Shown: positions 38,289 to 60,232 of the stretch, in pieces
How the letters are laid out: every line of letters begins with the position of its first letter
Position numbering within the stretch: position 1 is the first letter of the stretch
Source of the DNA: a virus
Direction: 5' to 3' (one strand)
Length of the DNA: 64,000 nt
IMG/VR virus record: IMGVR_UViG_3300007512_000012
Coordinates: 32,001 to 96,000 of that record
The notes under the pieces: model-generated
What the model was told of the DNA's origin: nothing
The model's database searches: none
Seen by the model: the letters and a program-made list of their open reading frames with translations, nothing else
Program-made: the position numbers and the translations under genes

Positions 38289-39806
38289 TCAGGAGAAGCT
38301 GCCGCTCACGTCCGGGTCGGAGGCCCAGAGGTTCGACAGCTCGGCGATCTCGTTGCCGCCGCTGGAGGCGACCTTCGGGACCTGGCCGACCGACTTGACG
38401 CCCTTGGACGCCTTGCGGGCCTGCGGCTGGAGGATGGCCGCGAGGCTGGCCTCCTTGTCGCTGCCCTCGTCGTCGCCCTCGTCCTCGTCCTCGGAGCCGA
38501 AGACCTCGTTGAAGGCGGCCTTGTCGGCGGCCGTCAGCTCGGTCCCGTCCGAGAGGCCCATCGGGTCGAAGCCGGTGGCGAAGAACTCGGCGTCGGAGGC
38601 CTCCTTGTCGGAGCCGCCCTCGTCCTCGTCGTCGTCGCCGCCCTCGTCGTCGGAGCCCTCGTCGTCACCGCCCTCGTCGTCGGAGCCCTCGTCCTCGTCG
38701 TCCTCGGACTTCTTGGCGGCCTCCTTGTCGGAGCCCTCCTCGTCGTCCTCGTCGTCGGAGGCGTTCTTCGAGGCCATCACGTCGCCGCAGGCGATCTCGC
38801 CGTCGTCCACCAGCTCGTCGTCCATGCCGTACTGCATGGCCTGGAGCATCTCCAGCTCGTCGTCGTCGAACTCGGCGACGTGGCCGAAGGCGGTCTTGTC
38901 GGACGCCTCCTTGTCGGAGCCCTCGTCGTCGTCGGACTCGTCCTCGGAGCCCTCCTTCTTCTTGGCCTCGCACATCTCCTGCATCTTGCCGTCGAGCTTC
39001 TCGCAGCCCGCGAGGACCTCGGCCCGAGCGATGATGCCGTCGTTGTCGGTGTCGAGGGACGCGAACATGGCGCGGGGGCCGGTCCAGTCCTCGGCCGTCA
39101 CGAAGCCGTCGCCGTCCAGGTCGAAGGCGTCGAACATCGCCATGACGGGGTTCGCGGCCTTGTCCGAGACGGCCGCCTCTTCCTTCTTCGCCTCCTGCTC
39201 GGACTTGCCGGAGGTGCCGAGGGTCTCGCCGCCGGGGTCGTTCTGGTCGGCGCTCTTGAGCGCCTTCAGCTCGGCCTCCATCGCGGCCAGGCGGGCCTCC
39301 ATCGGGTCCAGGGCCGGGGCCTCGTCCTCGGGGAACATCCCGAGCAGCTCCTCCTCCATCGAGAGGAAGTCGCCGCCGAGGCGCTCGACCGAGGCCTCCA
39401 GGGCGGTGTCGTCCATGCTCATGTAGCCGAACGCCTGGTTCTCGATGTCGTCCCACGACGCGGTCTTGCCGAGCGTGGCCCGCGCGAGCACGAGGCACTT
39501 GGCCGACTTGCGCCGGACGAGCTGCATCAGGTTGGCCTGGCGGCCGACCTGCCCGGTGTGGGCCGGGTGGTCCTGGTCCTCGACCCCGTAGCCGGGCGTC
39601 GCGGGCGGGCCGCTGTCCCCGTAGGGCGGCGGGTGAACGTCCTCGGCGAACTCCGAGGGGCCGCCGATGTTGTAGTCGTCCTTGCCCGGATCGTCCTGGG
39701 TGTGGGCCGGGTGGTCCTGGTCCTCGACTCCGTAGCCGGGGGTTGCGGGGGGAGCAGCCGCCTCACGGTCGAGGGCCGCCCACGTCATGCGCTGACGAGT
39801 GCTCAT
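38289..39806 (-). CDS. Putative capsid scaffolding protein, acidic, with an EF-hand pair
   Basis: Lies between protease and capsid genes; ATGA-coupled; DLDGDGFVTAED and DTDNDGIIARAE loops; D/E-rich repeats. Confidence 0.7.
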   Translation of the reverse strand: MSTRQRMTWAALDREAAAPPATPGYGVEDQDHPAHTQDDPGKDDYNIGGPSEFAEDVHPPPYGDSGPPATPGYGVEDQDHPAHTGQVGRQANLMQLVRRKSAKCLVLARATLGKTASWDDIENQAFGYMSMDDTALEASVERLGGDFLSMEEELLGMFPEDEAPALDPMEARLAAMEAELKALKSADQNDPGGETLGTSGKSEQEAKKEEAAVSDKAANPVMAMFDAFDLDGDGFVTAEDWTGPRAMFASLDTDNDGIIARAEVLAGCEKLDGKMQEMCEAKKKEGSEDESDDDEGSDKEASDKTAFGHVAEFDDDELEMLQAMQYGMDDELVDDGEIACGDVMASKNASDDEDDEEGSDKEAAKKSEDDEDEGSDDEGGDDEGSDDEGGDDDEDEGGSDKEASDAEFFATGFDPMGLSDGTELTAADKAAFNEVFGSEDEDEGDDEGSDKEASLAAILQPQARKASKGVKSVGQVPKVASSGGNEIAELSNLWASDPDVSGSFS

Positions 39807-41269
39807 CGCTTCGTCTCCTTGCCTGTGGCGACTGCCAGGGATGGGTTCCTGCTCCCGTTGCGATCCTGGCCTCGCCGCGAGATGAGCTTGCCGAGCTTGA
39901 TCAAGGTCTGTGCCTCGGCGGTTGTGGGCTTGCGGCCGAGCGCCGCTCGACAAGCCCGGAGGAATTGACTCGACGAGCTGTACTCGCCGATGTCGCCGAG
40001 CTGCGCAGCAGCCCGGTACACAGGCACGGGGATCTCCACCCCGTACTCCGCGTGCAGTAGGGCCACCTTGTCCATCAGGTCGGTGTCGCTCGAAGCGTGC
40101 CGACAGAGGAAAGCCACAGTGGCGTCGTACACCGCCGCCTGCTTGACCACGTTGTCGTTGGGAGCCGCCGAAGACTCCTCGGGACCGAGGGCCTCGTCGA
40201 GGTCCTTCTGGTCCATGTCCTTCTTGAGCTTCTTCTTGACCCGATCCCGCATGTGATCGGTCAGCTCACGTTCCATGTCGTCGAACGGGCCGCCCTCGTC
40301 CTTCTTCTCGGCCGGGGCGTCCACGTCGTCGTCTTCGTCGCCCCACCCGGCCATGAAGTGGTCGCCGCCGAAGGCGAGGGCAGCGGCCTTGCGGCGGGTG
40401 CCCTTCGTCCACTCCTCCGGGGGAGTCGCGAGGATGGCCGAGGCGGCCTTGCCGAGCTTGTCGCCCTGGTGGATGGCGAGCACGTTGCGGAGGACCGCGC
40501 CCGTGAAGGCGGGGGTGCCGACCCAGGACGCCTCGATGAAGTGGACGCCGCCGGTCGGGTCGAGGCTCGGGTGACCGCACAGCTCCGCGACGCGGTGCTG
40601 ACGCCCCTGCTCGTCGAAGAAGACGTTCCCCTTCTCGTACTTGATGTGGGGGCACATCTCCGTCTCGTCGGCGGCCCAGTGCCCGCACTTCGTGCAGATG
40701 GTGCCATCGACGGTGCAGCCCATCGACAGGGTGCCCATCTTGCCGGACTCGATGGCCTCGACCAGGTCCGCGTGCTTGCGGTCCGTGGCGATGAGGATGT
40801 CCACGTAGACCGAGTCGCCGATGTCGCGAGCGACCGCGTCGATGACCCGGCCCTTCGACAGCTCCTCGACCTGGACGTGCTCGACGAAGTTCTGCGCCCC
40901 GATGAAGGTCCGGTAGCTCTTGAGCAGAACGTCCCGGTCCCAGGCGTCGAGGTTGTTGTTGATGAACTTGTCGCAGCCGAGCTTGACCCGGAACTTGCCG
41001 TACTTCCGGTTGATCCTGAAGCCGCCCTCGGAGTGCTTGCCGAGCTTCGTGTTCGGCGGCTCGAAGGTGTCCACCGACGCCACGATGGTCGCGTGGGTCA
41101 GCAGGTAGTCGCTCGGGTTGAAGGGCTTGCCGAAGATCTCCGACGCGCGGTCGATGAGGTTCTCCGACACCTCCGCAGCGGCCTTGGCGGCCGTGCGAAC
41201 CTTCGCCCAGCCCGCACGTCCGACGTGCGGGGTGACGACCTCAGCCCTGGCGTACTTCAGGAAGGCCAT
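39803..41269 (-). CDS. Prohead (capsid maturation) protease
   Basis: NNNLDAW...YRTFIG..NFVEH...SKGRVID...LSMGC...CTKCGH...CPHI...FIEASWVGTPAF. Confidence 0.8.
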   Translation of the reverse strand: MAFLKYARAEVVTPHVGRAGWAKVRTAAKAAAEVSENLIDRASEIFGKPFNPSDYLLTHATIVASVDTFEPPNTKLGKHSEGGFRINRKYGKFRVKLGCDKFINNNLDAWDRDVLLKSYRTFIGAQNFVEHVQVEELSKGRVIDAVARDIGDSVYVDILIATDRKHADLVEAIESGKMGTLSMGCTVDGTICTKCGHWAADETEMCPHIKYEKGNVFFDEQGRQHRVAELCGHPSLDPTGGVHFIEASWVGTPAFTGAVLRNVLAIHQGDKLGKAASAILATPPEEWTKGTRRKAAALAFGGDHFMAGWGDEDDDVDAPAEKKDEGGPFDDMERELTDHMRDRVKKKLKKDMDQKDLDEALGPEESSAAPNDNVVKQAAVYDATVAFLCRHASSDTDLMDKVALLHAEYGVEIPVPVYRAAAQLGDIGEYSSSSQFLRACRAALGRKPTTAEAQTLIKLGKLISRRGQDRNGSRNPSLAVATGKETKR

Positions 41270-42171
41270 CAGGCAGCCTCCACCGGGTTGCCGTCGAGGT
41301 CGCAGGCCAGGACTCGGTCGCTGCCGTCACCGTCGAAGCCGAAGCTCTTGCGGTACTCGGAGTCGTCCGGGTCCACCACGATCTCGAAGCTGTGCCCGAC
41401 ACCACCGATCTTGCCGATGTACGCGAGCATCCGGGCCATCGACTCGGCCCCGTCGCCGTTGCCGCTGAACTTCACCGTGAGGGTGCGCTCGTCGGCTGCC
41501 GACTTCACCTGCTGGACCAGGTCGAACCCCTGGTCCATCGTGCCGTCCCACTCCGCCTGCAAGTCGTTCTGCTGGCCGTCGTCGTTGGGCTCGTAGGCCG
41601 GGTCGCCGATGATCTGGTCCCGCTTGATGAGGAACATGCAGTGCGGGCACCCGAGCAGGCGGTGGCTCTGGCCGTCCACCCGCTTGTAGTTCGCCGGGCG
41701 GAGGTGGATGGGGTTGCCCTCGTCGTCGGCCTTGCACTTCGGGCAGGCGTACTTCCCGCCGTCCAGTTCGGCCTTCGTGCCCCGGTAGTGGCGGTCCTTG
41801 CTGGCCCAGTAGAGGGCCGACTTGATCCAGGCGTGGCTGATCCGGTCGATGGACAGGCGGGCAGCCGACTTCGCCACAGGCCCACCAGGCACGCTCACGG
41901 TCCCCGCCCCGCCGGGAACCGTGCTGTGCTCTGGATCGGGCGTCTTCGTGATGATGTCGGTCACCCTCTGCACGTCTTCGACCGGGTAGCGGCCGGAACC
42001 CCACGGGAAGTCGATGTCCACCTGGCCGATGCCAGGCCACACCGCAGTCACCGTCCCCGCCTGCGACTCGTCCGTCGCTCCACCCGCAAGCGGGTACGCC
42101 AGGTCACCAACAGCGAACTCGGAGGCCCGCTGCTGGTAATCGACGAAGACGGTGGCGTGGCGATTCCCCAC
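41269..42171 (-). CDS. Head-region protein with a zinc ribbon
   Basis: CPKC...CPHC; modular, with KSAA linkers. Confidence 0.7.
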   Translation of the reverse strand: MGNRHATVFVDYQQRASEFAVGDLAYPLAGGATDESQAGTVTAVWPGIGQVDIDFPWGSGRYPVEDVQRVTDIITKTPDPEHSTVPGGAGTVSVPGGPVAKSAARLSIDRISHAWIKSALYWASKDRHYRGTKAELDGGKYACPKCKADDEGNPIHLRPANYKRVDGQSHRLLGCPHCMFLIKRDQIIGDPAYEPNDDGQQNDLQAEWDGTMDQGFDLVQQVKSAADERTLTVKFSGNGDGAESMARMLAYIGKIGGVGHSFEIVVDPDDSEYRKSFGFDGDGSDRVLACDLDGNPVEAA

Positions 42172-42197: not shown

Positions 42198-42932
42198 TCA
42201 GGCCGCCTTCGCGATCCCCGCGACGATGTCGGCCATCTTGGCGAGCTTGTCGGCGGCGGCCGGGGGCACGTCGCCCGCGAGGTGCGGCATGACGTGCGCG
42301 GCGGCCCGCGTCAGCGTGGCGAGGCGCTCGGCGTCCTCGGAGCCCTCCAGCAGCCGGGTCTGGAACTGGAGCACGTCGAGTCCGGCGGCGGCCAGCCGCT
42401 CGCCGAGGGTCTTGACGGCCTCGTGATCGCTGGCGGCGCAGCGGGTCGCGGCACCGTTGATGTCCATGTAGAGCGCGGCGAGCTTCTTGCCGTTCTCCAG
42501 GGCCGCCTGCACGCCGGGCCGGGCCGTCTGCCGGTCGGAGCCGCCGGGCAGCTCGCCGCCCTCCTGCTTCTCGCGCAGCTCGCGGTTCTCCTGCTGGCTG
42601 AAGTGGCCGCCCATGTAGGACTCGTCGGCCTCCTGCTCCTTCGGGCCGGACTTCTCCTCGCCGATCTGCTCGGGGTCCTCGCCGATGTGCTTGCCCTCGT
42701 CGAACACGTCGTCACCCGTGAGGGCGGTCTTGCGCTCGGTGGCGAGCTTCTCGATGTCGATCTCGGCCCGCTTGGCGATGTGGTCCGACAGGAGGTCGCA
42801 CTGGAAGCCGAACTTCTGCGCGATCTCCGGCTTGATGCCGAAGGACTCGGCGTTCTTCTGGATGAGATCCGCTGCCTTGTCGAGGATGTTCCCCGCGTCG
42901 AGCGCGGCCTGCTTGCTGAGCTTCTGGGCCAT
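42198..42932 (-). CDS. Head-region hypothetical protein
   Basis: GGAGG RBS; downstream of a late-promoter copy. Confidence 0.75.
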   Translation of the reverse strand: MAQKLSKQAALDAGNILDKAADLIQKNAESFGIKPEIAQKFGFQCDLLSDHIAKRAEIDIEKLATERKTALTGDDVFDEGKHIGEDPEQIGEEKSGPKEQEADESYMGGHFSQQENRELREKQEGGELPGGSDRQTARPGVQAALENGKKLAALYMDINGAATRCAASDHEAVKTLGERLAAAGLDVLQFQTRLLEGSEDAERLATLTRAAAHVMPHLAGDVPPAAADKLAKMADIVAGIAKAA

Positions 42933-42994: not shown

Positions 42995-43015
42995 CTATAA
43001 CCCTCCCCGTATAGG
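42995..43015 (-). promoter_or_regulatory. Putative late promoter CCTAT-N12-ATAG
   Basis: Motif copy upstream of 42932. Confidence 0.7.
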
Positions 43016-43046
43016 AGAAAGATTGAAAAAACTCCCTGGGTGGTTC

Positions 43047-46000
43047 TCAGGCCACCAGGTCTTGCTCGTCCTCCGAAAGAACCGCTTTTTCCATCGCCGT
43101 GAACTCATCAGGCGACATCTGCTCGATTCTTTTTCGCTCGGCGGGGTCCTTCACATTTTCGAGAAAGTCCCGCTTCCGCTCCTCGGGCGACCGCTCCGGT
43201 CGCACTGAAGGGTCGTCCAGCAGCGAGAGGTCTGCCCCACCGGCCACGGCCCGCAGCACTGCAACCGCCGTGTCCTGCGCGTCGGGCTCCACGTCCATGT
43301 CGTCGATGGCGTCGGCCGTCGCCTCGGCCTGTGCCCGGACCACAGCTTCCCGCGACCGCTTCATGCACTCGGCCTGCGTCTTGCCCTCCTCCAGGCACGC
43401 CTGGAGGGCCTCATCGACCGCCGAATCCACGGCCTCGCGGGTCTTGTCCTCCACCTCGTCCGCCGTCTGGTCGAACAGCTCGGGGAGGTTGGCGGGGTCC
43501 CGCTTCTTCCTGGTGATGGCCGCCGCGACGCCCTGCACGGTGGTCATGTGCATCACGCCCATGTCGCGGATCATGGCCCGCAGGTACTCCTGCACCTCGG
43601 GAGCCATGTCCGGGTTGTCGGCGAGCGCCTTGACCAGCGGCTCCCACGAGGTGCCCTCGGAGATCGCCGCCAGGCCCTCGTCGTCGAGCTTGCCCATCGC
43701 GTCGCGGACAGCCGCCCGGCCCTCCGCCGCGTAGACCTTCGACGAGTCCTTCAGGAACAACACCTCGGCGTTGCCCTGCTTGACCATCTGCTTGAGCACC
43801 AGCTTGAGCTTGCTGTTGAGCGGCTCCCGCACCAGGCGGCCGTCCGGGTGCTTCGCGTCGAAGTCCTCGTCGTTGAGCACCGCCGCCGCGTGGATGCCGT
43901 CGATGATCGCGTTCAGCTCGTCGTGCTCGGGGCTGCCCTTCTCGAAGTCACCGAGCTTCGCCGCCGCGTCCTCGGCCACCTGCCTTCGCTGGTCCGGGCT
44001 CACCCGCCGGTAGAGCTTCATCGCCTGCATCGCCCGTTCGGTCCGGGCGTCATCGTCGAGCTGCTCGGAGGAGAGGGGCTGGCCGCCGACGTTGGTGGGG
44101 TCGAGCAGCAGGGCCTCCTGGGCCTTCGCCTGGACCACGGCCTCGGCCAGCTCGTCGATGTCGTCCCCGTCCACGCCCTTGAAGGGGTCCTTCGCGATGT
44201 CCTTCATCGCCGACACCGTCACGCCGAAGTCGTCGAACAGCTCGCGGAGCTGCTTCATCTCCGCCTTGTACGCCGCATGGAACTCGGCCGAGTCGGCCTT
44301 CTCCATGAGCAGCAGAGCCGTCTCCTCCGTGATGACCTTGTCCCCGTAGAGCTTCTCGGCCAGGTCGGTGATCTCGGCCGTGAACTTCTCCTTGTCGGCC
44401 TTCGCCTGCTCCTTCTTCTTGGCCTCGTCCTCCTTGGCCTTCTCGGCCACGGCTTCCTCGGCCTCCTCCGGGGAGTCGGCGTCGCCCTTCGCGTAGGCCT
44501 CGGCCTTCGCCTTCGAGTCCTTGTCCTTGCCGAAGTCGTTGCGCACCTGGCCCTTCGCGTTCATCGCGTTCCAGGTGCCGTCGTCGGACGGCCACACGTC
44601 GCCGGGCTTGCGCTTCTGGCTCGGCTCGCCCTCGGCCATCAGCCAGCGGAGAGCGACGCGGTTGGCGGCCAGGGTCGCCCGCTTCTTGTAGTTGTTGCTC
44701 AGGTCCCGGTCGCCGTCCGCCCCGAAGCCCTCGATGTCCGGGTCGTCCTCCTTCATCCGGTTCCGGCGGAGATCGCGACGCGGGGGCTTCTTCGTGGGGT
44801 TGCGGCGGTTGAGGCGCTCGACCTCCTCCTCTTCCTTCTCGGCCTTCGACTTCGTGGCCCGCCGGGTCATCAGGGTGTGCCCCTGCTCCCGACCTGTCTC
44901 CACGAACCCTCGCTGCTTGAGCATCCGAACCGCGTGCGGGTTCACCGCATCGAGGCAGAACTGGATGTCGGGGAACGGCTCGACCAGGTCGTCGTACTGG
45001 CTGATGGCGATGTCCATCAGCTTCCCTCCGAGCCCCCTTCGCTGCCAGCCATCCGGGTCCACGACGATGTCGAAGGCGTAGCACTCCTGGTCACCCGAAT
45101 CCGACGAGTCGAACAAGGCAGCCACGAGCTTGCCCCCGGCCTCGTACCCCGCCACGAAGTCCATGTGCGACAAGATGTTGATCCCGGCCTTCTGTGCCAG
45201 CTTCCACGGGTCGGAACCTCGCGGAGCCCGCCAGACCAGGCGGGGAGACGCCCCCTCGACGAACCACCTGGCGGCCAGGCGACGGGTGGCCTGCTTGTAG
45301 AGCTGCCGCTTGCCGATGAGCTGCCAGGACAGGCCGATCTTCCCGTCCTCTGCGTTGCCGAGGTAGCCCGCCCCCTGAAGCTCGGTGACCACGTCGGGCA
45401 TCACCGGGTAGCCCCGCCAGGTGAACGTGCCGTCGTCCGCCACCAGGATGTGCTCGGCACCCCCGGCGGCCCGGTCCATGTCGTTGATGAGCGCCCACTC
45501 GTAGGCGGTCAGGCTGGAGATCAGCCCCTCGAAGCCCACCAGGCTGACCAGCGGGTCCGGGCTGGTGTAGCCCACCTCCTCCGGCCAGGCGTTGTAGATG
45601 GAGATGATGGCGACCTTGTCGGCCGCGAGGCGCATCGGGTGACGAAGACCGTAGACGCCGTGCGCCCGGTTCCGCCGCTTCTCCGACTGCATCGAGCCCT
45701 TCGCCATGCTGTACCACTGGCGGCCGGTCCGCCAGACGTAGCCGATGAGCCCGCCGCCGAGGTCCTTCTCGGGGTCCTCGTTCACGCTGGTCATCTCGGA
45801 CTCGCCCCACCCGAAGACCGCGACGATCTCGTCGGCTCGGCCGAGGATCTGCCGCAGGCCCCACGAGAGCCGCCCCTGCTTGTCGAGCTTCTCCTTGACC
45901 GTGCCGTCCCGCATGAAGGTGTCTTCGAGGCCCGGCACGAGGTACTGGCTGCGGAGCGTGCTGGCCTCGTGCCCCACCTCCTTGGCCGCCTCATCGAGCG

Positions 46001-49000
46001 CCTGCTGGAACTCCTTCTTGAGCTTCTGCTCCCGCTCCTTCTTGTCGGTCGGGAGCTTGCCGCCCTTGCCCCGGATGGCCTTGAGCCGGGTCTGGACTTC
46101 GCGGTTGGCGTGCAGCCCCCGGATGTCCTTCGCGGTGATGCCGTGGGGCTTCAGGTAGGCGTTCACGTCGCCTGCCTCGACGCCCTCGAACACGGGGTCG
46201 GTGCCGGACTTGCCCTTCAGGGCCTCGCGGAGCCCGCTGACCAGGCCGGAGTCGCTGGTGGTCTTCGTCTGGCTCACCCCGGACTTGCCGACGTACTTGA
46301 TGGTCGCCTTGCCGCCGGAGAGGGTGACGTGCTTCGCCTGCCAGCCGGTGACCCCGAAGTGGCCGTCCTTCGCCGAACCGGGGTTGCCGACCCGCTCGTA
46401 GGTGTCGTTCATCAGGCCCACGGCCAGGGCGCACAGCCGGGTCTTCTCGTCCTTCGACTTGAGGTCCTTGCCGATCTGGCCGCGCAGCTTGTCGAGGTTC
46501 TGCCGGAGCTTCTCGACCTTCTTCGCCTTCTCGCGGTTGCGGTGCTGGACCTGGCCCTCGCTGTACTCGTAGACCGTGACCTGCTCGCCCTTCTGGTTCT
46601 TGACCTTCTTCTTCGTGCCCTTGGCCGCCGTCTTCAGGCCGCCGGGCAGGGTCGGTGCCCGGAGCACGGCGATGACGTTGCCGGAGGAGGGGAAGTCGCG
46701 CGCGAGGCTCTTCCACACCCGCCCGGCAGCGGTGCTGGTGCCGGAGCCGCCGGAGCACTCGTAGGGCATGAACAGGAAGGGGCCGACCTTCTTGAACCAC
46801 TCGACCATGACGGCCAGGTACATCGCCTTGCCGATGCCGAGGCCCTGCTTGCTCTCGTCGGTGATGAACGCCTTGTAGACCTGGAGGGCTCGGGTGTTCG
46901 TCCGCTCCTCCCCGTCGCTCGCCACCCACCGAGGTCGGCTGGTGTCCTCGACCTGCGGGTACTTCGCCAGCAGCTTCAGGACATCCCGCCCACACGTCTC
47001 CCGCTCGGGGTAGCGCATCACGCTGGCGTGGAGCCCGCCGATGGGGGCTCGGCCGTAGTAGACGCCTGCGAGGATGGCGTCGCTGTCGGACTTGACCCGG
47101 TACTTGACCTTGTTGCCCTCGTGCTCCATCAGCGGGGTGTTCGGGCCGAACCGCTGCGCGTACCGGGAGGCCACCCGGTCCACGAGCATCCTGTGGATCT
47201 CGACCTCGCCCGCTTCACCGCGAGGCAGGGCCGGGCGGCCCTGGCCGTAGAGCGGCATCGTGCTGTCCACCGGAGACGGCTGCGTCTCGGCCAGCAGGTG
47301 CAACGGAACGATCGTCTCCTCCTCCCCGGACGCCTGCACGGCGTCGGCGAACTGCCTGTTGAACAGCAGGGCGAGGGAGTCGATGGGGACGCTCTTCGTG
47401 ATGTCGTCGGCACCGACTTCGAGGACGACGCGGTGCATGGTCGCCTGGTTGTAGCGGTCGCACAGCCGCCGGATGGCCGCGTTGGCCTCCTTCGACTGCC
47501 CCACAGCGTCCACAGCCTCGTTGAGCGAGTCCTGCACCATCTGCGCGAGGGCGTCCTCGGTCAGCTCGCCGCCCACCTTGCTGACGCCGAACCGGGCTTC
47601 GAGCTTCTTGTCGAGCAGCTTGGTGGCCTCGGCGACCACCTTCTTCGCGAAGATGTAGCCGGGCGGGGGCGGGATCGCGACGTACATGGCGGCGTTGATG
47701 CCGCCCTTCATCACCTCGCGGATGAGCAGCCGAGCGATGCGGGCACGCTCCTTCGGGTCTGGCACGTCGCCCTTGAGGAGCTTCGCCACCCCGGAGGCCA
47801 CGTCCTTGCCCCGCTCGACCTTCCGCTTGATGACCTTCTTCGCGATAGCCGCTGCACCGCTGACGGCCGACCGCAGCTTCCCGCGCTTCGGCTTGTCATC
47901 CTCGGCCTCGGGCGCGTCGTCGGTGACGGTGTGGTTCTTCGGGTCAGCTCCAGGGTGCTCCCGCAGGTACTCCTTGCGGGCCTCGTCCGTGCCGAACTCA
48001 CGAGCGGACTTCTCCGCCTTGTCGCGGGCGGCCTGGTCCTTGTCGTAACGGACCTTGAAGAGCTTGACCTCCTTCTTGGCCCCCTGCCCGCCCTGGTCCT
48101 TCTTCGGACGCTTGCGAACGATGACCGTGGGGTCGCCCTTCTCGTTCTCGCCGAAACCCTCGATGCGGCCGGGGCTGTTGAGGTACTTGCCCGTGAACAG
48201 CGGGTCGCCGATCTCCAGCTCGAACTTCTTCGCCGTGCGGGACAGCGGGTACGTCTCGGGCTTCGCCATCCCCCACACCGCCAGGCCCTCGACCGTCCAC
48301 GAACCCGTGGGCACCTGGCCCTCGTACTTCGAGTCGAGCCCGTCCAGGTAGGCGAGGGTGATGTGCGGGTTGTAGATGAGGAGCGAGCGGTCCTTCAGGG
48401 CGAACCCGGCATCGGTCAGCCGAACCCGGATGCCGTCTCGAAGCTGGTCCATGTACCCGTCGAACCGCACCGGGCAGTACGCCACTCGGCGTTCCTTCTC
48501 CGGGTGCTCGAAGTAGTCGAGGGGCTGGATGGTGGCCCGCATCGGCCGGTACTGGCTGGCCTCGGCCTGCACGGCTGCCAGGAACTCGGCCTCTCGCCCG
48601 CGCACGTCCCCCACGTAGAGCAGCGTGCAGTGGGGCGGGCTGTCGTCCTCGTCGCCGAGGCTCGGGAACTTCGCGGCCAACTCCTCCGGCAGCGGGAGCA
48701 TCAGCCCCACCTTCGCCCCGGAGCCCTTCACGGCCGCCGTGCGAGCTGCCTTCCAGCCCTGGCTCCGCCGCTCGTCGGTCGGCAGGCCGACCTCCTGGCC
48801 GGAGTCGAAGCCGATGTAGGCCCACCCGTCGCCCGCCTCGATGCTCGTCACCTGGTCGCCCTCATCGGGGAACCAGGTCGGGGCCATCGCCGCCGTGCGG
48901 CCACCCTGAAGGTCGAGCCTGACGCGCTGCGTCAGCCGCCGCTTGTCGGTCACGAGGGACGGACTGTCGAGCAGGTGACGGCGAGCCAGGTCGGTGACCT

Positions 49001-51464
49001 GGCTGATCTGGCCGCCCCGGAGCCCGAACTCCTTGATGAGCGACCGCATGTCCAGCACCTTGCCGGGCTGCTTGAGGGCCGCGATGAACTGGTCGGTGGC
49101 GTCAAACGACAGGTCCACCGCGATCTCCCGCAGGCGGGCGACCTGGTAGCGGTCGAGGAACCCGAGCCGCTTCCCGCTCGGGAGCCCCATGTCCATCATC
49201 GCGAACAGGGCATCCGAGCGCGTCTCATCGGCCACGTTGAACAGGGCGTTCGCCATCGCCCCGTTGCTCTGCGCGATGTCCTTGATCTCGTCGAGCAGCC
49301 CGAGCCGCTGCATCTCCTCCAGAGCCTTCTTCGCAGTGGGCTCCCGCAGGAGATCGACGAGCATGGTGCTCAGGTGGCCCGGCTTGATGTTCTTGAGCTT
49401 GCCCTTGTGCCGCCGGATGGCCGCCTCGGTGTCGGGCGTCAGCTTGAAGCCGTACTTCACGATGAACTTGATGGCCCGGACCATGCGGGTCGCGTCGTCG
49501 GTGAAGGTCTTGTCCGGGCTGGACGGGCACTTCATCGAGCCCGCCGCCAGGTCGGCGAGCCCGCACCCGGTCAGGTCGATGATCTCGGCCTTGTCCGGGC
49601 CGTTCGCCAGGTCTTGCAGCCGCCACATCAGCGTGTTGTGGACCACCACCCCGTTCGCCACGAAAGCAGGCTCGACCCCCTCGCCCATCGAGATGTCGAA
49701 TACGTCCTGCTGCCCCGCATCCTCAACCGACGTGACCTCGACGTACTGGTAACCGAGGTCGAACAACCGCTGGAGCTTGGCAAACTCGTCCGGGCTGATG
49801 GCCTTGAGGCTCGCCAGGAACCCGTCGAAACCCCCTCGGGCATGAGCATCGTGGAGAAGCCGCTGAACCTTCCGAACAGGCTCATGGACATCGGGGAGGG
49901 TTCTGAACCCATCCCCGTCCGTGGCGTAGACGGCCCGGCTGGTGTCCTGCTTCCGCCCGGCAAGGAACCCCCGAATGTACTCTGCGGGGATGCCGTAGCG
50001 GTTGCGGGCTTTGTTGTCCCGCCGGGTGTAATCGAACCCCTTGGTGACCATCCACGGTTGGATTTTCTCCCACAGGAGAGCCGAATCCACAGCGTTGATG
50101 TAGACGAACCTGCCCTTCACCTTGCTCAAAATGCCGTGAGCACCGAGAAGCACCTGCAACTGCTGGCGAACATGGGGGGACGCCGAGCAGTAGGTGATAC
50201 GCCCCGTCTCGGGCCGGATCGAGCCGTCACCCTCCAGATAGGCCGCAAGAAACGCCCACTGACTTCGCTCGTCAGCTTGCAGGATGGACCACGGGACGAT
50301 CTTGTGGTGGGAGGCTGACTTGCCGTCCTTGGACCCCCCGCAGTACAGGCCGAGGTCTTCCAGCCATCCGACCACGGCCTTGCTGTCGGCGTAGATGTCG
50401 TAGCCGTCTGCGCTGGCGACAAACTCCACCCCACGCAAGATGCGGACGGACCCCTTCTCGACCACCTTGTTGCGGGAGGGCTGGAACCCGAAGGTGGCGT
50501 GGAAGCACTCGACGTAGTGGGAGATGAGGGCTGGATCAGAGTTGCTGAACGACACCCGCTTGTGGGTGTTCGACCCCTCGGCCACGATGCACCCGATCAG
50601 GAACGCCAGTTCGGGCGTCATCCTCTCAGGCTTGCGGACATCCTTGAGTCGCCCACGCTTGGGCTGTACCGGATCGGGCAGGTCGAGAGCAAGGGGCGTC
50701 CGCCTCGCCACCTGCCGCACGGGCACACAGAGCAGGTCACCTTCCTCAAGCTGGTCCGCCTGAACCCACTCGTGGTCGTGGCCCCGAAGGACCAGAACCG
50801 GATGGTGGGGCGTGCAGGAGAAAGAATGACCCCACTCAGTCGTCACCCGCAGGGTGGGGGCGTAGCCGCTGTACTGCCACCCCACAGCAGTCGAAGGGCC
50901 GTCCTGCCCCGCCACGGTCAACCGGATGTCCTGATGATCCCCCCCGTCACGAGAGGCGATCTGGTCGATGCGGAGGATGCCCTTCTCAGTAGGGATTAGG
51001 GTGTCCCCGGCCATGCAGTTGAAGGTGAACTCGCGGCGACGGGCGTCGTCCTCGATGGTCGCCTTCTCGACGTGCGTGGGCTTGTACCCGCCGTCCGTGT
51101 AGGACTCGATGCGGGCGTTGGCGATCTCGATGTCCTCGCCCTGGAGGTTCTCCTCCCCGAGCATCCAGTCGCCCACGATGTGCAGCAGGGCGACGCCGTA
51201 GTCGTTGGTCTGGATGCGGGTCTTCGCGGGGATGGCCTTGGCGACCTCCTTGGCGAACCAGTCGGAGTCCTTGCCGCGCAGGGCCACCGAGTCGATGACC
51301 ACGTCGATGTCCTTGATCGGGCGGCGGATGACGAAGTTGCGGACGGCCCCGCCCACGACGTAGACGTGCCTGCCGACCCCCAGGCGCTTCGCCAGGTCCG
51401 ACAAGAACTTCATCAGCGCCAGGGACGCCGAGCTGCTCATCGCGATGTGGGTCGGCACTGCCAC
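43047..51464 (-). CDS. 2805-aa polyvalent protein: CCA/poly(A)-type nucleotidyltransferase (with intein), 2H phosphoesterase, GNAT, topoisomerase IB, GNAT, helical tail
   Basis: VVGGAVRN..KDIDV, RRREFTFN, DDATRMVRAIKF; PHCTL and PHITL; QGLGIGKAMY; ERVGN, YVGKSG, TAKDIR, GHEASTLRSQY; WQRRGLGGKLM. Confidence 0.88.
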   Translation of the reverse strand: MAVPTHIAMSSSASLALMKFLSDLAKRLGVGRHVYVVGGAVRNFVIRRPIKDIDVVIDSVALRGKDSDWFAKEVAKAIPAKTRIQTNDYGVALLHIVGDWMLGEENLQGEDIEIANARIESYTDGGYKPTHVEKATIEDDARRREFTFNCMAGDTLIPTEKGILRIDQIASRDGGDHQDIRLTVAGQDGPSTAVGWQYSGYAPTLRVTTEWGHSFSCTPHHPVLVLRGHDHEWVQADQLEEGDLLCVPVRQVARRTPLALDLPDPVQPKRGRLKDVRKPERMTPELAFLIGCIVAEGSNTHKRVSFSNSDPALISHYVECFHATFGFQPSRNKVVEKGSVRILRGVEFVASADGYDIYADSKAVVGWLEDLGLYCGGSKDGKSASHHKIVPWSILQADERSQWAFLAAYLEGDGSIRPETGRITYCSASPHVRQQLQVLLGAHGILSKVKGRFVYINAVDSALLWEKIQPWMVTKGFDYTRRDNKARNRYGIPAEYIRGFLAGRKQDTSRAVYATDGDGFRTLPDVHEPVRKVQRLLHDAHARGGFDGFLASLKAISPDEFAKLQRLFDLGYQYVEVTSVEDAGQQDVFDISMGEGVEPAFVANGVVVHNTLMWRLQDLANGPDKAEIIDLTGCGLADLAAGSMKCPSSPDKTFTDDATRMVRAIKFIVKYGFKLTPDTEAAIRRHKGKLKNIKPGHLSTMLVDLLREPTAKKALEEMQRLGLLDEIKDIAQSNGAMANALFNVADETRSDALFAMMDMGLPSGKRLGFLDRYQVARLREIAVDLSFDATDQFIAALKQPGKVLDMRSLIKEFGLRGGQISQVTDLARRHLLDSPSLVTDKRRLTQRVRLDLQGGRTAAMAPTWFPDEGDQVTSIEAGDGWAYIGFDSGQEVGLPTDERRSQGWKAARTAAVKGSGAKVGLMLPLPEELAAKFPSLGDEDDSPPHCTLLYVGDVRGREAEFLAAVQAEASQYRPMRATIQPLDYFEHPEKERRVAYCPVRFDGYMDQLRDGIRVRLTDAGFALKDRSLLIYNPHITLAYLDGLDSKYEGQVPTGSWTVEGLAVWGMAKPETYPLSRTAKKFELEIGDPLFTGKYLNSPGRIEGFGENEKGDPTVIVRKRPKKDQGGQGAKKEVKLFKVRYDKDQAARDKAEKSAREFGTDEARKEYLREHPGADPKNHTVTDDAPEAEDDKPKRGKLRSAVSGAAAIAKKVIKRKVERGKDVASGVAKLLKGDVPDPKERARIARLLIREVMKGGINAAMYVAIPPPPGYIFAKKVVAEATKLLDKKLEARFGVSKVGGELTEDALAQMVQDSLNEAVDAVGQSKEANAAIRRLCDRYNQATMHRVVLEVGADDITKSVPIDSLALLFNRQFADAVQASGEEETIVPLHLLAETQPSPVDSTMPLYGQGRPALPRGEAGEVEIHRMLVDRVASRYAQRFGPNTPLMEHEGNKVKYRVKSDSDAILAGVYYGRAPIGGLHASVMRYPERETCGRDVLKLLAKYPQVEDTSRPRWVASDGEERTNTRALQVYKAFITDESKQGLGIGKAMYLAVMVEWFKKVGPFLFMPYECSGGSGTSTAAGRVWKSLARDFPSSGNVIAVLRAPTLPGGLKTAAKGTKKKVKNQKGEQVTVYEYSEGQVQHRNREKAKKVEKLRQNLDKLRGQIGKDLKSKDEKTRLCALAVGLMNDTYERVGNPGSAKDGHFGVTGWQAKHVTLSGGKATIKYVGKSGVSQTKTTSDSGLVSGLREALKGKSGTDPVFEGVEAGDVNAYLKPHGITAKDIRGLHANREVQTRLKAIRGKGGKLPTDKKEREQKLKKEFQQALDEAAKEVGHEASTLRSQYLVPGLEDTFMRDGTVKEKLDKQGRLSWGLRQILGRADEIVAVFGWGESEMTSVNEDPEKDLGGGLIGYVWRTGRQWYSMAKGSMQSEKRRNRAHGVYGLRHPMRLAADKVAIISIYNAWPEEVGYTSPDPLVSLVGFEGLISSLTAYEWALINDMDRAAGGAEHILVADDGTFTWRGYPVMPDVVTELQGAGYLGNAEDGKIGLSWQLIGKRQLYKQATRRLAARWFVEGASPRLVWRAPRGSDPWKLAQKAGINILSHMDFVAGYEAGGKLVAALFDSSDSGDQECYAFDIVVDPDGWQRRGLGGKLMDIAISQYDDLVEPFPDIQFCLDAVNPHAVRMLKQRGFVETGREQGHTLMTRRATKSKAEKEEEEVERLNRRNPTKKPPRRDLRRNRMKEDDPDIEGFGADGDRDLSNNYKKRATLAANRVALRWLMAEGEPSQKRKPGDVWPSDDGTWNAMNAKGQVRNDFGKDKDSKAKAEAYAKGDADSPEEAEEAVAEKAKEDEAKKKEQAKADKEKFTAEITDLAEKLYGDKVITEETALLLMEKADSAEFHAAYKAEMKQLRELFDDFGVTVSAMKDIAKDPFKGVDGDDIDELAEAVVQAKAQEALLLDPTNVGGQPLSSEQLDDDARTERAMQAMKLYRRVSPDQRRQVAEDAAAKLGDFEKGSPEHDELNAIIDGIHAAAVLNDEDFDAKHPDGRLVREPLNSKLKLVLKQMVKQGNAEVLFLKDSSKVYAAEGRAAVRDAMGKLDDEGLAAISEGTSWEPLVKALADNPDMAPEVQEYLRAMIRDMGVMHMTTVQGVAAAITRKKRDPANLPELFDQTADEVEDKTREAVDSAVDEALQACLEEGKTQAECMKRSREAVVRAQAEATADAIDDMDVEPDAQDTAVAVLRAVAGGADLSLLDDPSVRPERSPEERKRDFLENVKDPAERKRIEQMSPDEFTAMEKAVLSEDEQDLVA
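49635..51017 (-). mobile_element. Intein (461 aa) with a LAGLIDADG homing endonuclease
   Basis: N-terminus CMAGDTLI, block B CTPHHPVL, LIGCIVAEG and FLAAYLEGDG, C-terminus FVANGVVVHN followed by T; visibly more AT-rich than flanks. Confidence 0.93.
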
Positions 51465-51482
51465 CAGTCGCTCCTACGTCTT

Positions 51483-51503
51483 CTGTCGAAGACGGTTCAT
51501 AGG
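51483..51503 (-). promoter_or_regulatory. Putative late promoter CCTAT-N12-ACAG for the polyprotein
   Basis: Motif copy between portal and polyprotein genes. Confidence 0.6.
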
Positions 51504-51518
51504 CAAACGACCGCCCGC

Positions 51519-53234
51519 CTACCCGAACCGGCCGCCGCCCTCTTCCTGTGGCTTCTCGTACTTCAGCCCGAGGTACTCGGCGATCTTCTCGGCGAAGTCG
51601 CTGTTCTCCGCCAGGGCGTCGCCGACCCGCGAGTAGAGGCCACGGAACAGCTCGTTGAACGTCGCGTCCTGCACGGTGCCCACGTCCTGCATGAGCTTCT
51701 CGCGCACCGTCACCGGGTCGAGGTTCAGGTGTTCGAGGATCGTGTCGATGTCCAGCGAGCCCTTCTGGTAGAGGTTCATCAGGGCGTCGAACGTCTCGGT
51801 GTTGTCGCGGAACGACAGCCGGGTGAACGACAAGCGGGGGACGATGACCTGGAGGTTGCCGTCCTCGTCTTCCTCGACGAACCCCATGCGGGCGCACATC
51901 GGCCGGAAGAACTGCTCCTCCACCAACCCCTGCAACGTCTCCCGGTTGAGCATGAACCGCTGGTTGATGACCTCCAGGTTGATGCGGTCACCGGAGTAGC
52001 TGGACTCGCCGGAGAGCAGGCTCTCGGTGACCCCGAGGCCCGCGTACATCTGGCGGTCGGTGAAGTCGAAGACCCACGACCAGTCGGGGAGCCGCTGGTC
52101 CGCCCCCATCTCCTCCCACGTCACCTGGAAGTTGGTGATGATGGAGAAGTCGGGGTCCTGAAGGGCCAGGTCCACCTGCTCGCGGAGGTCCTCGGTCTGC
52201 TCCGCGTTCATGTCCTCGGCGTAGATGAGCCGGTAGGGCGTCATGTGCCGCGAGGCGATGGACGTGAGGCTCTGGCGGACCTTGTCGCGGAAGACGAGCG
52301 TCCGCAGGCAGCGGAGCAGGATGCTCTTGCCACGGGGCTCATACTGCGACTTCTTGCGGGCCATCAGGTAGTAGAACGACCCCGCCTCCGGGTCCGTGTT
52401 CAGCGGGATGTTCTGCCCCTCGGCGATGGCCGCCACCACGTCCTCGGGCATCGAGTTCACGACGCGGGCCGCGTGGGGGTCCCCGGAGGCTGCTCGGTTG
52501 ATGACCGCCTTCGTCTTCGAGTCGGGGATCAGCTCGATGAGCTTCTCGTCCGTGAAGGGGAAGCTCTCGACGTGGATCTGCTCGGGGGGCAGGCAGCGGA
52601 TGGCCGTCCAGCCCTTGTAGTTCTTCTTGAGCCAGGCCGCCATGCGCTCGTTGGCGTCCTCGTGCCGGACCTTGCGCTCGACGATCTCACCGTCCTTGGT
52701 GATCTCGCGGACGATCTCGAACTCGATGTCCTCCGGCATGTCCGGCGAGGTGTCCTCGCAGAAGATGTGGGCCTCGCCGAGCAGGTTCCACTCGTGGTTG
52801 ATCTCCATCAGCCGGTGAAGGAGCCCCTGCCGCTTCGCCCAGTTCTCGCAGAAGCGAAGCGACGCAGAGGCGAGCTTCTCGTTGCGGGCCTTCGGCTTGC
52901 GGAGGCGGACCTTCGAGAGCGGCAGCTCGTCGAGCAGGTCGATGGCCTGGCCGACGAAGGGGTCGTGGTCGTAGAAGAAGCGGTAGAAGTTGCGCTTCTC
53001 GTCGTCGCTCTGCGGCAGTTCGAGGAAGTCGGTGGACAGCTCGGGCGAGTAGAAGTTGCCGCCCGCCCCCATCATGGAGCCGCCCGCAGCACCGCCGTAG
53101 CCGCCGCCGACACCGCACGCGGCGGCCTTCATCGACGACGTGACGATCTTCGTGGGCTTGCCCACCGTCACACCCTTCCGGTCTGCCACCTTGCGGACGA
53201 CCGTCGTGTCGTCGGGGTCGTTCGACCTAGCCAT
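51519..53234 (-). CDS. Portal protein
   Basis: 571 aa after the terminase; RFFYDHDPFVGQAIDL...PLS, RGKSIL-x-R, GLGVTESLLSGESSY. Confidence 0.85.
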   Translation of the reverse strand: MARSNDPDDTTVVRKVADRKGVTVGKPTKIVTSSMKAAACGVGGGYGGAAGGSMMGAGGNFYSPELSTDFLELPQSDDEKRNFYRFFYDHDPFVGQAIDLLDELPLSKVRLRKPKARNEKLASASLRFCENWAKRQGLLHRLMEINHEWNLLGEAHIFCEDTSPDMPEDIEFEIVREITKDGEIVERKVRHEDANERMAAWLKKNYKGWTAIRCLPPEQIHVESFPFTDEKLIELIPDSKTKAVINRAASGDPHAARVVNSMPEDVVAAIAEGQNIPLNTDPEAGSFYYLMARKKSQYEPRGKSILLRCLRTLVFRDKVRQSLTSIASRHMTPYRLIYAEDMNAEQTEDLREQVDLALQDPDFSIITNFQVTWEEMGADQRLPDWSWVFDFTDRQMYAGLGVTESLLSGESSYSGDRINLEVINQRFMLNRETLQGLVEEQFFRPMCARMGFVEEDEDGNLQVIVPRLSFTRLSFRDNTETFDALMNLYQKGSLDIDTILEHLNLDPVTVREKLMQDVGTVQDATFNELFRGLYSRVGDALAENSDFAEKIAEYLGLKYEKPQEEGGGRFG

Positions 53235-54033: not shown

Positions 54034-56088
54034 TCACCTCCCTCCCCGGCCGCGTGAGCGACCCCGGATCAGGGACCGCTGGCGGTCGGGGCTCGAACCA
54101 CCGAGCCGAGAGCGGGCCATCGCCTTGCGCCGGGCCTTCGCCAGCTCGGTCGGCGACGCCTGGCCCTTGTGGCGGCCCTTCTTGCGCGAGGTGCCCGCGA
54201 TGTACTTCCGCTTGCCCATGTGCTGGGTGGCCTCCCACACCATGCGGACCAGGGCGTCGGAGTAGTCGTCGTACTTGTCGGGCTGGTTGGGGGCCTCGAC
54301 CGTCACGATGTACTTGCTGTGCGTCTCCGCCTGAAGCTCCAGCAGCTCCTCGATGTAGTCGGCGTGGGCGTTCGGGTTCTCCGGGTTGGGCTGGTCGAAC
54401 AGCACCAGCTTTTGCTCGAACATCAGGGTCTTGAAGTTGGCGAAGATCTGGCTGGTGAGCTGCTTCGTGAAGAAGACCGACTCGCACTGCGTCAGGCCGC
54501 GCTTGTGCAAGGCCGTCTCGAAGGGGATGCCCGCCCACTGGTCGAACATGCCCTTCTCGATGTAGAAGCGGCGGCTCAGGGCGTACAGCCAGGCGGTGAT
54601 GTCGTCGAAGGACAGCCGCTCCAGGTCTTCGTAGTCGCCCTCACCTGCCCGGATGCGCTCGATGTAGTCGAGGACGATCCGGTGCTCCTCGTCGATGTGG
54701 CCGATGGCGACCGCGCAGTAGTCGCCGTCCACCAGGCCCGCCGAGATGTCGATGCCCATGAAGTGCGGGGCACGCAGCGGGGCCTTCTGCGCGGGCCGGA
54801 GCATCGGGTCCACGCAACGCAGCAGCGGCCCCGGCTTCAGCCAGCCCTTCGTCCGGTCCGTGAACTCGGCCCCGAACTCCGTGAAGAAGCTGTCCGGGTC
54901 GGTGGCGTACTCCTCCGCGAGGAACGTCGCCTCGACCGTGGGGTTCACCTCCCACGTCGGGGCCTGGATGCAGAGCATGTTCCGCGACTCCAGGCCGCCG
55001 GAGTAGCCCTGCCTGAACTTGCGGAAGAAGAAGCCCTGCTTCCCGAGGGGGGACGAGATCGAGAGGATGCGCCCCTCGACCTTGCCGATGGCCCGCCGCC
55101 GGTTGCGGGGGTCCTTCGGCGAGAAGGCCGCCAGCGACGGCTTGACGGCCCGGTAGATCGTGAGCGCGTCGCTCTGGCCCACGTCGTTGAAGTGAGCCAG
55201 CTCGTCGAGGATGATGACGATGTTGCCTGCACCGCGCAGGCCCTTCGCCACGCACGACTTGAAGCTGACCTTGATGGTCGCCTTGGCCGTGGGGTCGTCC
55301 ACGTACCGGCCGAACCGGCTGATGTCCTCCGGCGACTGGAACTTCGCGTAGGACATCGTGTTGTTGGCGGTGTAGGGCTTGTAGAAGGCGCAGTTCGAGA
55401 AGTGGCCGCTGGCCTCGTTGTAGAGCAGACCCGCCTGGTCCTTGTCCGTCGCCACGCTGATGAGCTGGATGACGTTGGTCTTCGGGATGCCGTAGTACCG
55501 CTGCGGGTTGTCCTTGAGGATGAGCTTGTAGACCTCGTAGGCCATCACGCAGGCGCAGATGAAGGTCTTGCCGGAACGACGGCCGATGGAGAGCACCAGC
55601 TCGCGGCGCTCCCGGCCAGGCACCACCTCCTTGATGTTGCTGCGGCCCTCGGCGTACAGGAACCGGAGGTACTCGGCCTCCGTCATGTAGCGGGGGTTCT
55701 CCCGCCGCCAGTCGGTGATCTTGACCCGGAACTTGTAGAAGCCGGTCTCGTCCTCCATCGCGTCCGGGTAGTCGAGCGGCTCCTCCGGCTCGACTTCATC
55801 GGGCAGGAGATCGATCAGCTCGCCGGGCTCGTCCTCATCCTCGTCGTCCGGCAGGAACGCGATCTCGTCGTAGTTCGGGTGGTCGGACGGGACCTTCTTC
55901 GTGAGGTCCAGGCCCCACGGGTTGTCGTCGAGGGGGATGCCGTAGTGGGCCTTCAGGATGACCCGCTGCACGGGATACAAGGGGATGTTGAGTCCCCAGG
56001 ACGACTCCACGAACTCGATGATGTTCGCTGGCTGCTGCCCTGTTCGCTCTTGCTTTCCCGCTGCGAGGGCGATGTCCGCCAAGCTCAT
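54034..56088 (-). CDS. terL: Terminase large subunit
   Basis: LYPVQ adenine-binding motif, Walker A GRRSGKT, Walker B IILDE, coupling motif ISSP, RNase H-like MGID...DDYSDA. Confidence 0.92.
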   Translation of the reverse strand: MSLADIALAAGKQERTGQQPANIIEFVESSWGLNIPLYPVQRVILKAHYGIPLDDNPWGLDLTKKVPSDHPNYDEIAFLPDDEDEDEPGELIDLLPDEVEPEEPLDYPDAMEDETGFYKFRVKITDWRRENPRYMTEAEYLRFLYAEGRSNIKEVVPGRERRELVLSIGRRSGKTFICACVMAYEVYKLILKDNPQRYYGIPKTNVIQLISVATDKDQAGLLYNEASGHFSNCAFYKPYTANNTMSYAKFQSPEDISRFGRYVDDPTAKATIKVSFKSCVAKGLRGAGNIVIILDELAHFNDVGQSDALTIYRAVKPSLAAFSPKDPRNRRRAIGKVEGRILSISSPLGKQGFFFRKFRQGYSGGLESRNMLCIQAPTWEVNPTVEATFLAEEYATDPDSFFTEFGAEFTDRTKGWLKPGPLLRCVDPMLRPAQKAPLRAPHFMGIDISAGLVDGDYCAVAIGHIDEEHRIVLDYIERIRAGEGDYEDLERLSFDDITAWLYALSRRFYIEKGMFDQWAGIPFETALHKRGLTQCESVFFTKQLTSQIFANFKTLMFEQKLVLFDQPNPENPNAHADYIEELLELQAETHSKYIVTVEAPNQPDKYDDYSDALVRMVWEATQHMGKRKYIAGTSRKKGRHKGQASPTELAKARRKAMARSRLGGSSPDRQRSLIRGRSRGRGGR

Positions 56089-56782: not shown

Positions 56783-56790
56783 GGGGACTC

Positions 56791-57336: not shown

Positions 57337-57345
57337 CTCGACCTC

Positions 57346-60176: not shown

Positions 60177-60196
60177 GAGCGGCTCACCTCCGGCTT

Positions 60197-60217
60197 CTAC
60201 AGGACTCGGGATATAGG
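60197..60217 (-). promoter_or_regulatory. Putative late promoter CCTAT-N12-GTAG
   Basis: Exact motif upstream of 60176. Confidence 0.7.
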
Positions 60218-60232
60218 CTGGATACCAGCGGC

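Follow-up and report, generated by a model that had tools for sequence, protein, structure and literature searches.

A 2805-residue multi-enzyme protein with an RNA-repair theme, encoded in the head-gene locus of a huge uncultured phage, as candidate capsid cargo

Phages SPN3US and P1 package many proteins that are ejected. Phage polyvalent proteins, in which 2-15 disparate domains are joined in one polypeptide encoded among virion, portal or terminase genes, have been argued to enter the virion and to reach the host by injection (Iyer, Burroughs, Anand, de Souza, Aravind 2017, PMC5512222). Here, a giant gene of related layout was analysed in a 64,000-nucleotide stretch of viral DNA (the window), which covers positions 32001-96000 of the 110,937-bp IMG/VR virus record IMGVR_UViG_3300007512_000012 (GC content 68%; completeness ~25% by CheckV). 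The gene, a single unbroken open reading frame (ORF) at 43047-51464 of the window on the minus strand, encodes a protein of 2805 aa, in which a CCA-type nucleotidyltransferase (NTase), a 2H phosphoesterase, a GNAT-fold domain, a topoisomerase IB (TopIB), a GNAT acetyltransferase and a helical C-terminal tail follow one another. The protein is read as a multi-enzyme protein of the polyvalent type, devoid of a MuF domain, with an RNA-repair theme and a role as capsid cargo, a reading whose chances are put at slightly better than even.

The likeness to polyvalent proteins lies first in the architecture, with many unrelated enzymes (the CCA-type NTase, 2H, two GNATs and TopIB) in one polypeptide, and second in the gene position beside the portal and among the head genes of a phage with portal and terminase, which is conserved in ~35 loci. 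Content is variable in both, and domain types are shared, namely 2H, GNAT, ART-PolyVal, InPase and PRTase; among homologues of the protein, the polyvalent domain pool is represented by ART-PolyVal, InPase, NUDIX, PRTase, GNAT and 2H. In contrast to polyvalent proteins, the 2805-aa protein is without MuF, DarA-N or zincin peptidase domains, and the fixed core of its family consists of the CCA-type NTase, TopIB and a new helical C-terminal tail, whereas both TopIB and CCA-type enzymes are missing from the polyvalent-domain listing (PMC5512222). Furthermore, its 2H domain accompanies RNA-repair enzymes, a pairing unseen in that work, and a short shared peptide, the tag, stands ahead of its modules. 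Phage_Mu_F (PF04233) was absent from the protein at E up to 1, from the whole 110-kb record and from 44 relatives sharing the C-terminal tail, and the protein was therefore not classed as a MuF/SPP1 gp7 minor head protein. The original prediction, which was made from the sequence without database searches, had likened the locus to that of MuF and polyvalent proteins and had seen no MuF domain; both statements agreed with the present results.

Poxvirus TopIB is carried in the virion. The poxvirus enzyme (vaccinia, variola; PDB 2h7f) and Deinococcus TopIB (2f4q) are of the same compact catalytic type as the domain found here and share its R-K-R-H-Y pentad; in contrast to them, the present domain forms part of a giant multi-module protein, the match omits the N-terminal domain of 2f4q, and presence in the virion is presumptive. 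The class II tRNA NTases of bacteria and phages share the head and RNA-binding domains as well as motifs A, B and D with the enzyme described here, which differs in being fused to TopIB and to a tail of the head locus and in having its motif B split by an intein. Homologues moreover resemble RNA-repair cassettes, as they add RNA ligase, HAD_SAK_1, cREC and CPD modules to the NTase. Burroughs and Aravind reportedly described such 'Swiss Army Knife' RNA-repair proteins in 2016, names that are reflected in Pfam HAD_SAK_1 and cREC_REC.

The gene and its family

The gene comprises 2805 codons and a stop. Its start codon was assigned as GTG 51464, with an AGGAG ribosome-binding site 6 nt upstream (51471-51475); other gene callers place the start at residue 3 or 9. 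The protein was recovered in at least three independent assemblies at ≥99.75% identity, among them full-length gapless copies in other JGI and ENA assemblies (99.89% and 99.75% identity). The ORF is thus one true gene in the genome of a huge uncultured phage, uninterrupted between the portal and protease genes as had been described at the outset, and the misassembled fusion that had been named as a possible refutation is answered by these copies. Opposite the gene, an antisense ORF of 2256 codons (43548-50318, plus strand) is a GC-rich shadow frame and no gene.

The gene sits within a head module consisting of large terminase (TerL), portal, prohead protease and major head protein genes. An alignment-based scan returned 42 related IMG/VR loci, and in ~35 of these the order TerL, portal, giant ORF(s), orf244, orf300, protease was kept. 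This order persisted with portal identity down to 56% and GC contents of 44-65%, while the slot between portal and orf244 ranged from 5.6 to 17 kb and was in some loci divided among several genes. A large protein-collection search gave ~38 homologues of 1600-3100 aa with the same core, all of them on metagenomic contigs (up to ~440 kb). Near-universal in these were NTase and TopIB, the shared fixed core being the CCA-type enzyme, TopIB and the ~600-residue helical C-terminal tail, to which the 2805-aa protein adds the 2H domain, the two GNATs and two or three modules of no assigned function. Other homologues carry RNA_ligase, HAD_SAK_1, cREC_REC, tRNA_lig_CPD, ChaC, NUDIX, ART-PolyVal, InPase or a PRTase-like stretch. 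Block-wise comparison showed that the order of modules varies as well, with 2H ahead of the NTase in many homologues.

The 2805-aa protein is therefore one member of a large metagenomic family of shuffled modules. Its domain combination, for which the original prediction named no precedent, is not unique in view of the ~38 giant homologues and 42 IMG/VR loci, and the variable domain content that had been proposed as a check at the same locus of related phages was found. With a profile of the C-terminal tail, 667 cluster representatives were matched, 191 of them at E ≤1e-30, and the tail was almost always C-terminal. Among 44 shorter members with this tail, 24 carry TopIB; a CCA match was reported for none of them. 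The family is restricted to very large phages, on contigs of up to 536 kb. A scan of viral contigs for close relatives with a single protein query found nothing, and a literature search found no paper describing this protein family, which comprises hundreds of sequence clusters in huge phages only.

Enzyme modules, intein, C-terminal tail and peptide tag

All features of the gene given below lie on the minus strand. The original prediction had located a class II NTase at about 48900-51464, a 2H phosphoesterase with two HxT motifs at about 48250-48720, a GNAT-like domain at about 46670-47130, a TopIB core at about 45900-46560, a second GNAT at about 44860-45260 and a helical tail. Each of these was borne out by profile, motif or model, with the correction that the NTase span includes an overlooked intein of 461 residues (150-610). 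The catalytic residues of the enzyme domains, including the NTase motifs and the TopIB pentad, were all present and were invariant in 12 homologues.

The class II tRNA nucleotidyltransferase signature was complete (GG..R, DxD, motif B RRE 143-145, motif D [ED]DxxR), the motifs being GGAVRN at residues 38-43, D52-I-D54, RREFTFN at 143-149 and DDATR at 656-660. Pfam placed the PolyA_pol head (PF01743) at residues 34-154 (49.6 bits) and PolyA_pol_RNAbd (PF12627) at residues 672-727 (27.4 bits). Matches to CCA-adding, A-adding and poly(A) polymerase types scored alike in PDB and NCBIfam and lay far below all equivalog cut-offs. No tRNA genes were found in the 110-kb record, from which three quarters of the genome are missing.

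The NTase is divided into an N-extein (residues 1-149; 51018-51464), which holds GGAVRN, D52-I-D54 and motif B, and a C-extein (residues 611-860; 48885-49634) with motif D and PolyA_pol_RNAbd. Between them, the LAGLIDADG-type intein (49635-51017), matched by PF14890 (Intein_splicing) and PF14528 (LAGLIDADG_3), interrupts motif B. It starts with Cys150 right after RREFTFN, has block B T218-x-x-H221 and LAGLIDADG motifs ending at E296 and D413, and closes with H609-N610, followed by Thr611 as +1 residue. Since homologues without intein, 77-81% identical in the flanks, read RREFTFN-TL uninterrupted, the insertion lies within motif B and is polymorphic in the clade. A literature search found no paper on an intein in a tRNA nucleotidyltransferase or at such an insertion site.

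Among cultured phages, the inteins nearest to it reside in genes for terminases and helicases, the closest being in a terminase of Xanthomonas phage PhiXhv-16. Several relatives also have a related intein in their TerL gene (L004:2790-4172, L007/L009:2773-4116). In two further loci, the C-terminal half of the NTase was broken by ~0.8-1.2 kb (L032:10460-12048, L039:10421-12218), and in three loci the portal match was split by ~1.6 kb (L017/L018/L031:6599-9920); additional inteins, or insertions elsewhere, may account for these breaks.

Next in the protein, the 2H phosphoesterase spans residues ~904-1075 (48240-48755) with the motifs H945-C-T and H1034-I-T, and 2_5_RNA_ligase2 (PF13563) was matched at residues 941-1064 with 42.8 bits (cut-off 27).

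GNAT-fold domain 1 (residues 1440-1609; 46638-47147) has the motif A Q1540-G-L-G-I-G. Its residues 1440-1606 gave no Pfam match and no PDB sequence match, and its assignment to the GNAT fold is accordingly by fold match of the predicted structure. In the AlphaFold model (predicted local distance difference test, pLDDT, 80-95), Foldseek probability reached 0.97, the best 50 structural rows were all GNAT enzymes (Z 6.7-8.1 over 100-130 residues), and the Atlas lead score was 0.95.

The TopIB catalytic domain covers residues 1616-1865 (45870-46619), with Topoisom_I (PF01028) at residues 1640-1836 (85.5 bits, E 5e-24). The pentad R-K-R-H-Y is complete (R1691, K1727, R1782, H1832, Y1841), and PDB matches were 6z01, 2f4q, human Top1 and 2h7f. 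Among cultured phages, PaBG gp084 and the TopIB proteins of the Xanthomonas PhiXhv phages (PMC7824862) are comparable in that they belong to very large phages and are encoded in structural-gene regions; in contrast to the present module, to which they are 27-31% identical, they are stand-alone proteins of 560-670 aa without CCA enzyme or C-terminal tail. The respective genes are located at 56209-57897 in Pseudomonas phage PaBG (L045) and at 191134-193140 in Xanthomonas phage PhiXhv-16 (L046).

GNAT acetyltransferase 2 (residues 2070-2200; 44865-45257; motif A R2142-R-G-L-G-G) exceeded the PF00583 cut-off when scanned alone (22.9 vs 20.7 bits). It gave weak matches to GNAT structures in the PDB, and homologue P0027 has PF00583 at the equivalent place.

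The conserved C-terminal tail (residues 2201-2805; 43050-44864) starts with an acidic-basic head (ATK.. PKKKPPR.DLRRNR .. DLS.NYK) that contains a copy of the peptide tag, followed by an all-helical body. The model of these 605 residues was all-helical with a mean pLDDT of 76.8.

Three stretches between the enzymes, namely residues 1076-1155, 1156-1439 and 1866-2069, gave no Pfam family or Atlas lead. The first, a small conserved beta module termed modC (48000-48239), opens with the degenerate tag RTAKKF, is shuffled among homologues and has three strands in a model of modest confidence. The second (47148-47999) is a charged helical or disordered linker region with a conserved block at residues 1335-1393, and the third (45258-45869) comprises one or more partly conserved modules after TopIB with no assigned family.

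The peptide tag, R-[VL]-A-x-R-[YW], occurred in seven strict copies in the 110-kb record compared to 0.10 in shuffles (~70-fold), all in late-region genes. Three copies belong to the 2805-aa protein: RVASRY (residues 1430-1435; 47160-47177) just before GNAT 1, RLAARW (residues 2062-2067; 45264-45281) just before GNAT 2, and RVALRW (residues 2269-2274; 44643-44660) in the head of the tail, a position that is tagged in nearly all homologues. With a slightly looser pattern, 65 copies were counted in 38 homologues against 3.4 expected; recurrent sites lie directly ahead of TopIB, ahead of the small beta module and of GNATs, and, in the tail, behind DLS.NYK. In relatives with a split slot, separate ORFs carry the tag either near their start (residues 6-32) or in about their last 15 residues. 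The models placed it in a helix flanked by a low-confidence linker. Repetition at the DNA level was ruled out, as codons differ among the copies, which indicates selection on the peptide. Another candidate border delimiter, [RK]TA[AK], gave 29 matches against 11 expected and was set aside; most matches were degenerate forms or near neighbours of the RVAxR[YWF] tag, and since the 2805-aa protein has KTAAKG where TopIB begins its module and RTAKKF at modC, this delimiter largely coincides with the tag.

Four other late-region proteins of unassigned function are tagged as well (28884-31775, 31778-32185, 59589-60311 and 63349-63660, all on the minus strand). Among these, the tag lies ≤15 residues from the C-terminus in the proteins of 963 and 135 residues, whereas in those of 103 and 240 residues it is found at residues 15 and 58, respectively; in three of the four it thus occupies an extremity of the protein. 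A weak match to a SWIM zinc finger was obtained as well for the protein of 963 residues. In two loci the tag is at the C-terminal end of the portal protein (L010:8204-9901, residue 550 of 565; L017:8199-9923, residue 558 of 574), which hints at an action at or inside the capsid.

Proposed role as capsid cargo and alternative explanations

Packaging of the 2805-aa protein is inferred from the conserved position of its gene in the head locus, the always-terminal conserved tail and the tag shared with late proteins and some portals. The packaging, cutting into enzymes and injection proposed by the original prediction thus depend on gene order, this tag and analogy with other phage proteins. In the proposed course, the giant protein would be made late in infection, the intein would excise and restore motif B of the NTase, and the tags and/or the C-terminal tail would dock the protein within the procapsid in a manner similar to T4 capsid-targeting or encapsulin cargo peptides. 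The likeness to the T4 internal proteins and Alt and to encapsulin cargo is one of working principle, in that a short peptide on unrelated proteins could address the interior of an HK97-type shell; in contrast to those peptides, with which it has no sequence likeness, the tag also occurs inside the 2805-aa protein and in multiple copies there, and its binding or cleavage is conjectural. The prohead protease may cleave the protein into modules, and the tag might alternatively mark the protease sites. The enzymes would then enter the host together with the DNA. There, damage by host anticodon or tRNA nucleases would be repaired by the CCA enzyme together with the 2H domain, which would restore 3' ends of tRNAs and heal the 2',3'-cyclic phosphates that such nucleases leave. 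By analogy with poxvirus virion TopIB, the TopIB module would relax the very long genome on entry, and the GNATs would acetylate host targets.

A more specific version, put forward tentatively and held to be somewhat less probable than its opposite, assigns the loading to the six-residue tag. Alone or together with the C-terminal tail, it would bring interchangeable enzyme cassettes, fused or separate, into the capsid and also mark where cassettes are separated, so that the virion delivers a ready-made set of enzymes that repair tRNA, relax DNA and modify the host. Such a virion would be the first of a tailed phage known to contain TopIB and a CCA-adding enzyme.

If the cargo reading is true, tailed phages would bring tRNA-repair enzymes and TopIB into the cell before any gene expression, which would directly counter host defences that cleave tRNA and would parallel poxvirus virion TopIB. 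The tag would represent a simple, testable address code for the loading of large capsids, useful in phage engineering.

Several points weigh against packaging and delivery. The 2805-aa protein has neither a MuF domain nor a recognisable peptidase in the Pfam scan, and its C-terminal tail gave no match to a known portal- or capsid-binding fold when the PDB and BFVD were searched with Foldseek (best VIA Z 7.6, to helical bundles, at noise level). By sequence, the NTase is indistinguishable from A-adding enzymes or poly(A) polymerases. The intein-containing protein of 2805 residues must moreover splice before it is useful, and splicing is a prediction. No cultured relative was found, as INPHARED phages gave only intein and distant TopIB matches; one closer match was found in an uncultured 485-kb phage. 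The distant TopIB genes of cultured jumbo phages are stand-alone, and TopIB is not among the proteins of the PaBG virion proteome, which is indecisive on this point because only 14 abundant proteins are listed.

The best-surviving alternative, to which a modest minority chance is given, is a late cytoplasmic multi-enzyme protein for RNA repair and DNA topology, fused for co-expression, with an incidental site in the head cluster and a tag that would serve, for example, to bring together a complex in the cytoplasm or to regulate proteolysis. It is favoured by a promoter-like motif and a terminator-like hairpin of the gene's own and by jumbo phages, in which stand-alone TopIB and CCA genes, listed separately in a survey, serve as ordinary enzymes (PMC7824862). 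It does not account well for the position between portal and protease, which is kept across very divergent phages despite varying content, nor for the confinement of the tag to late-region proteins and its occurrence on the portal C-terminus in two loci; the always C-terminal conserved tail suggests a common anchoring function.

Unlikely, to a somewhat greater degree, is a head-internal morphogenetic protein in which TopIB and the C-terminal tail form a swivel at or near the portal and relieve torsion of a genome of ≥400 kb during packaging or ejection, the other enzymes being passengers with little role after entry. The combination of TopIB and tail is indeed the most widespread core of the family, found without a reported CCA match in the 24 shorter proteins mentioned above, the gene adjoins the portal, and only phages of very large size have the family. 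However, the accessory modules are overwhelmingly enzymes of RNA-end repair and host modification, which are sensible only in the host cytoplasm, and no phage is known to use a topoisomerase for packaging.

The function of the 2H domain allows for another explanation, namely an anti-signalling nuclease similar to Acb1 or to viral 2',5'-phosphodiesterases, which would degrade cyclic or 2'-5' nucleotide messengers; it is regarded as improbable to the same extent as the swivel. In its favour, the 2H domains of polyvalent proteins were argued to be unrelated to repair, as they were never found with RNA ligases, and signal degradation was proposed for those fused to MuF or portal proteins (PMC5512222). 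In the present family, by contrast, 2H is part of the same polypeptide as the CCA enzyme and, in homologues, also of RNA ligase, HAD_SAK_1, cREC and CPD modules. The best PDB match of the domain was 5h7e, an RNA 2',3'-cyclic phosphodiesterase, and enzymes of this type were its sole sequence matches; compared by sequence alone, no Acb1 chain was among its PDB matches at E up to 10. The score against the ThpR equivalog TIGR02258 was 33.7 bits and thus below the cut-off of 65.7. Because of the accompanying RNA-repair modules and the exclusive matches to RNA 2',3'-cyclic phosphodiesterases, a probable role in RNA-end healing, along with repair of tRNA 3' ends, is preferred over an Acb1-like role. 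The original prediction had left a choice between tRNA-end repair and degradation of cyclic-nucleotide signals; its first half gains support from the RNA ligase, HAD_SAK_1, cREC_REC and CPD modules of the homologues, whereas an Acb1-like anti-CBASS function found no support in the sequence matches.

That the long ORF is chimeric through misassembly or open by chance, for which the GC-rich DNA (68%) and the 2256-codon antisense shadow ORF might speak, has next to no likelihood, and an artefact is excluded at the level of assemblies, since Pfam domains with intact catalytic residues span the entire frame, homologues are collinear and the same gapless protein was obtained from other assemblies.

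Neighbouring genes and upstream motifs

The neighbouring genes described here are all on the minus strand. The TerL gene (54034-56088) is located upstream of the portal gene and separated from it by two small ORFs; the Mu-type portal gene (51519-53234) is the immediate upstream neighbour of the giant gene. Downstream, two small conserved ORFs of unassigned function (42198-42932 and 41269-42171) precede the prohead maturation protease gene (39803-41269), the product of which gave no match to the PDB by sequence. The protease gene is followed by one for an acidic protein with an EF-hand, by an ORF of 229 residues and by that of the major head protein (290 residues; 36490-37362).

The motif CCTAT-N12-RYAG was found at seven sites in the window, spread over 5094-63702, against 0.19 expected, all on the minus strand and upstream of minus-strand genes. 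One copy (51483-51503), a candidate late promoter, lies 19 nt before the start codon of the giant gene, and the next (42995-43015) is ahead of the following gene (42198-42932). At the portal junction the motif was kept in two of 24 related loci and is hence lineage-specific. The upstream copy of a late promoter that had been described initially is therefore real as a repeated motif, and its activity as a promoter is a prediction from sequence. Two further candidates for upstream elements were discarded: an exact 14-mer of the upstream region was not repeated, and the enrichment of TTYGCCTATG was not significant. A terminator-like hairpin, seen in the sequence and unlisted in the consensus scan, overlaps the stop codon of the giant gene and is followed by T6 (43026-43059).

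Between protease and head protein, the ORF at 38289-39953 (minus strand) encodes 554 residues with long Asp/Glu-rich repeats and one EF-hand, and is a possible scaffold, for which 37376-38065 is a further candidate. The major head protein was 81-99% identical across 19 loci, compared to 56-85% for the portals, at GC contents of 44-65%, and is thus unusually strongly conserved.

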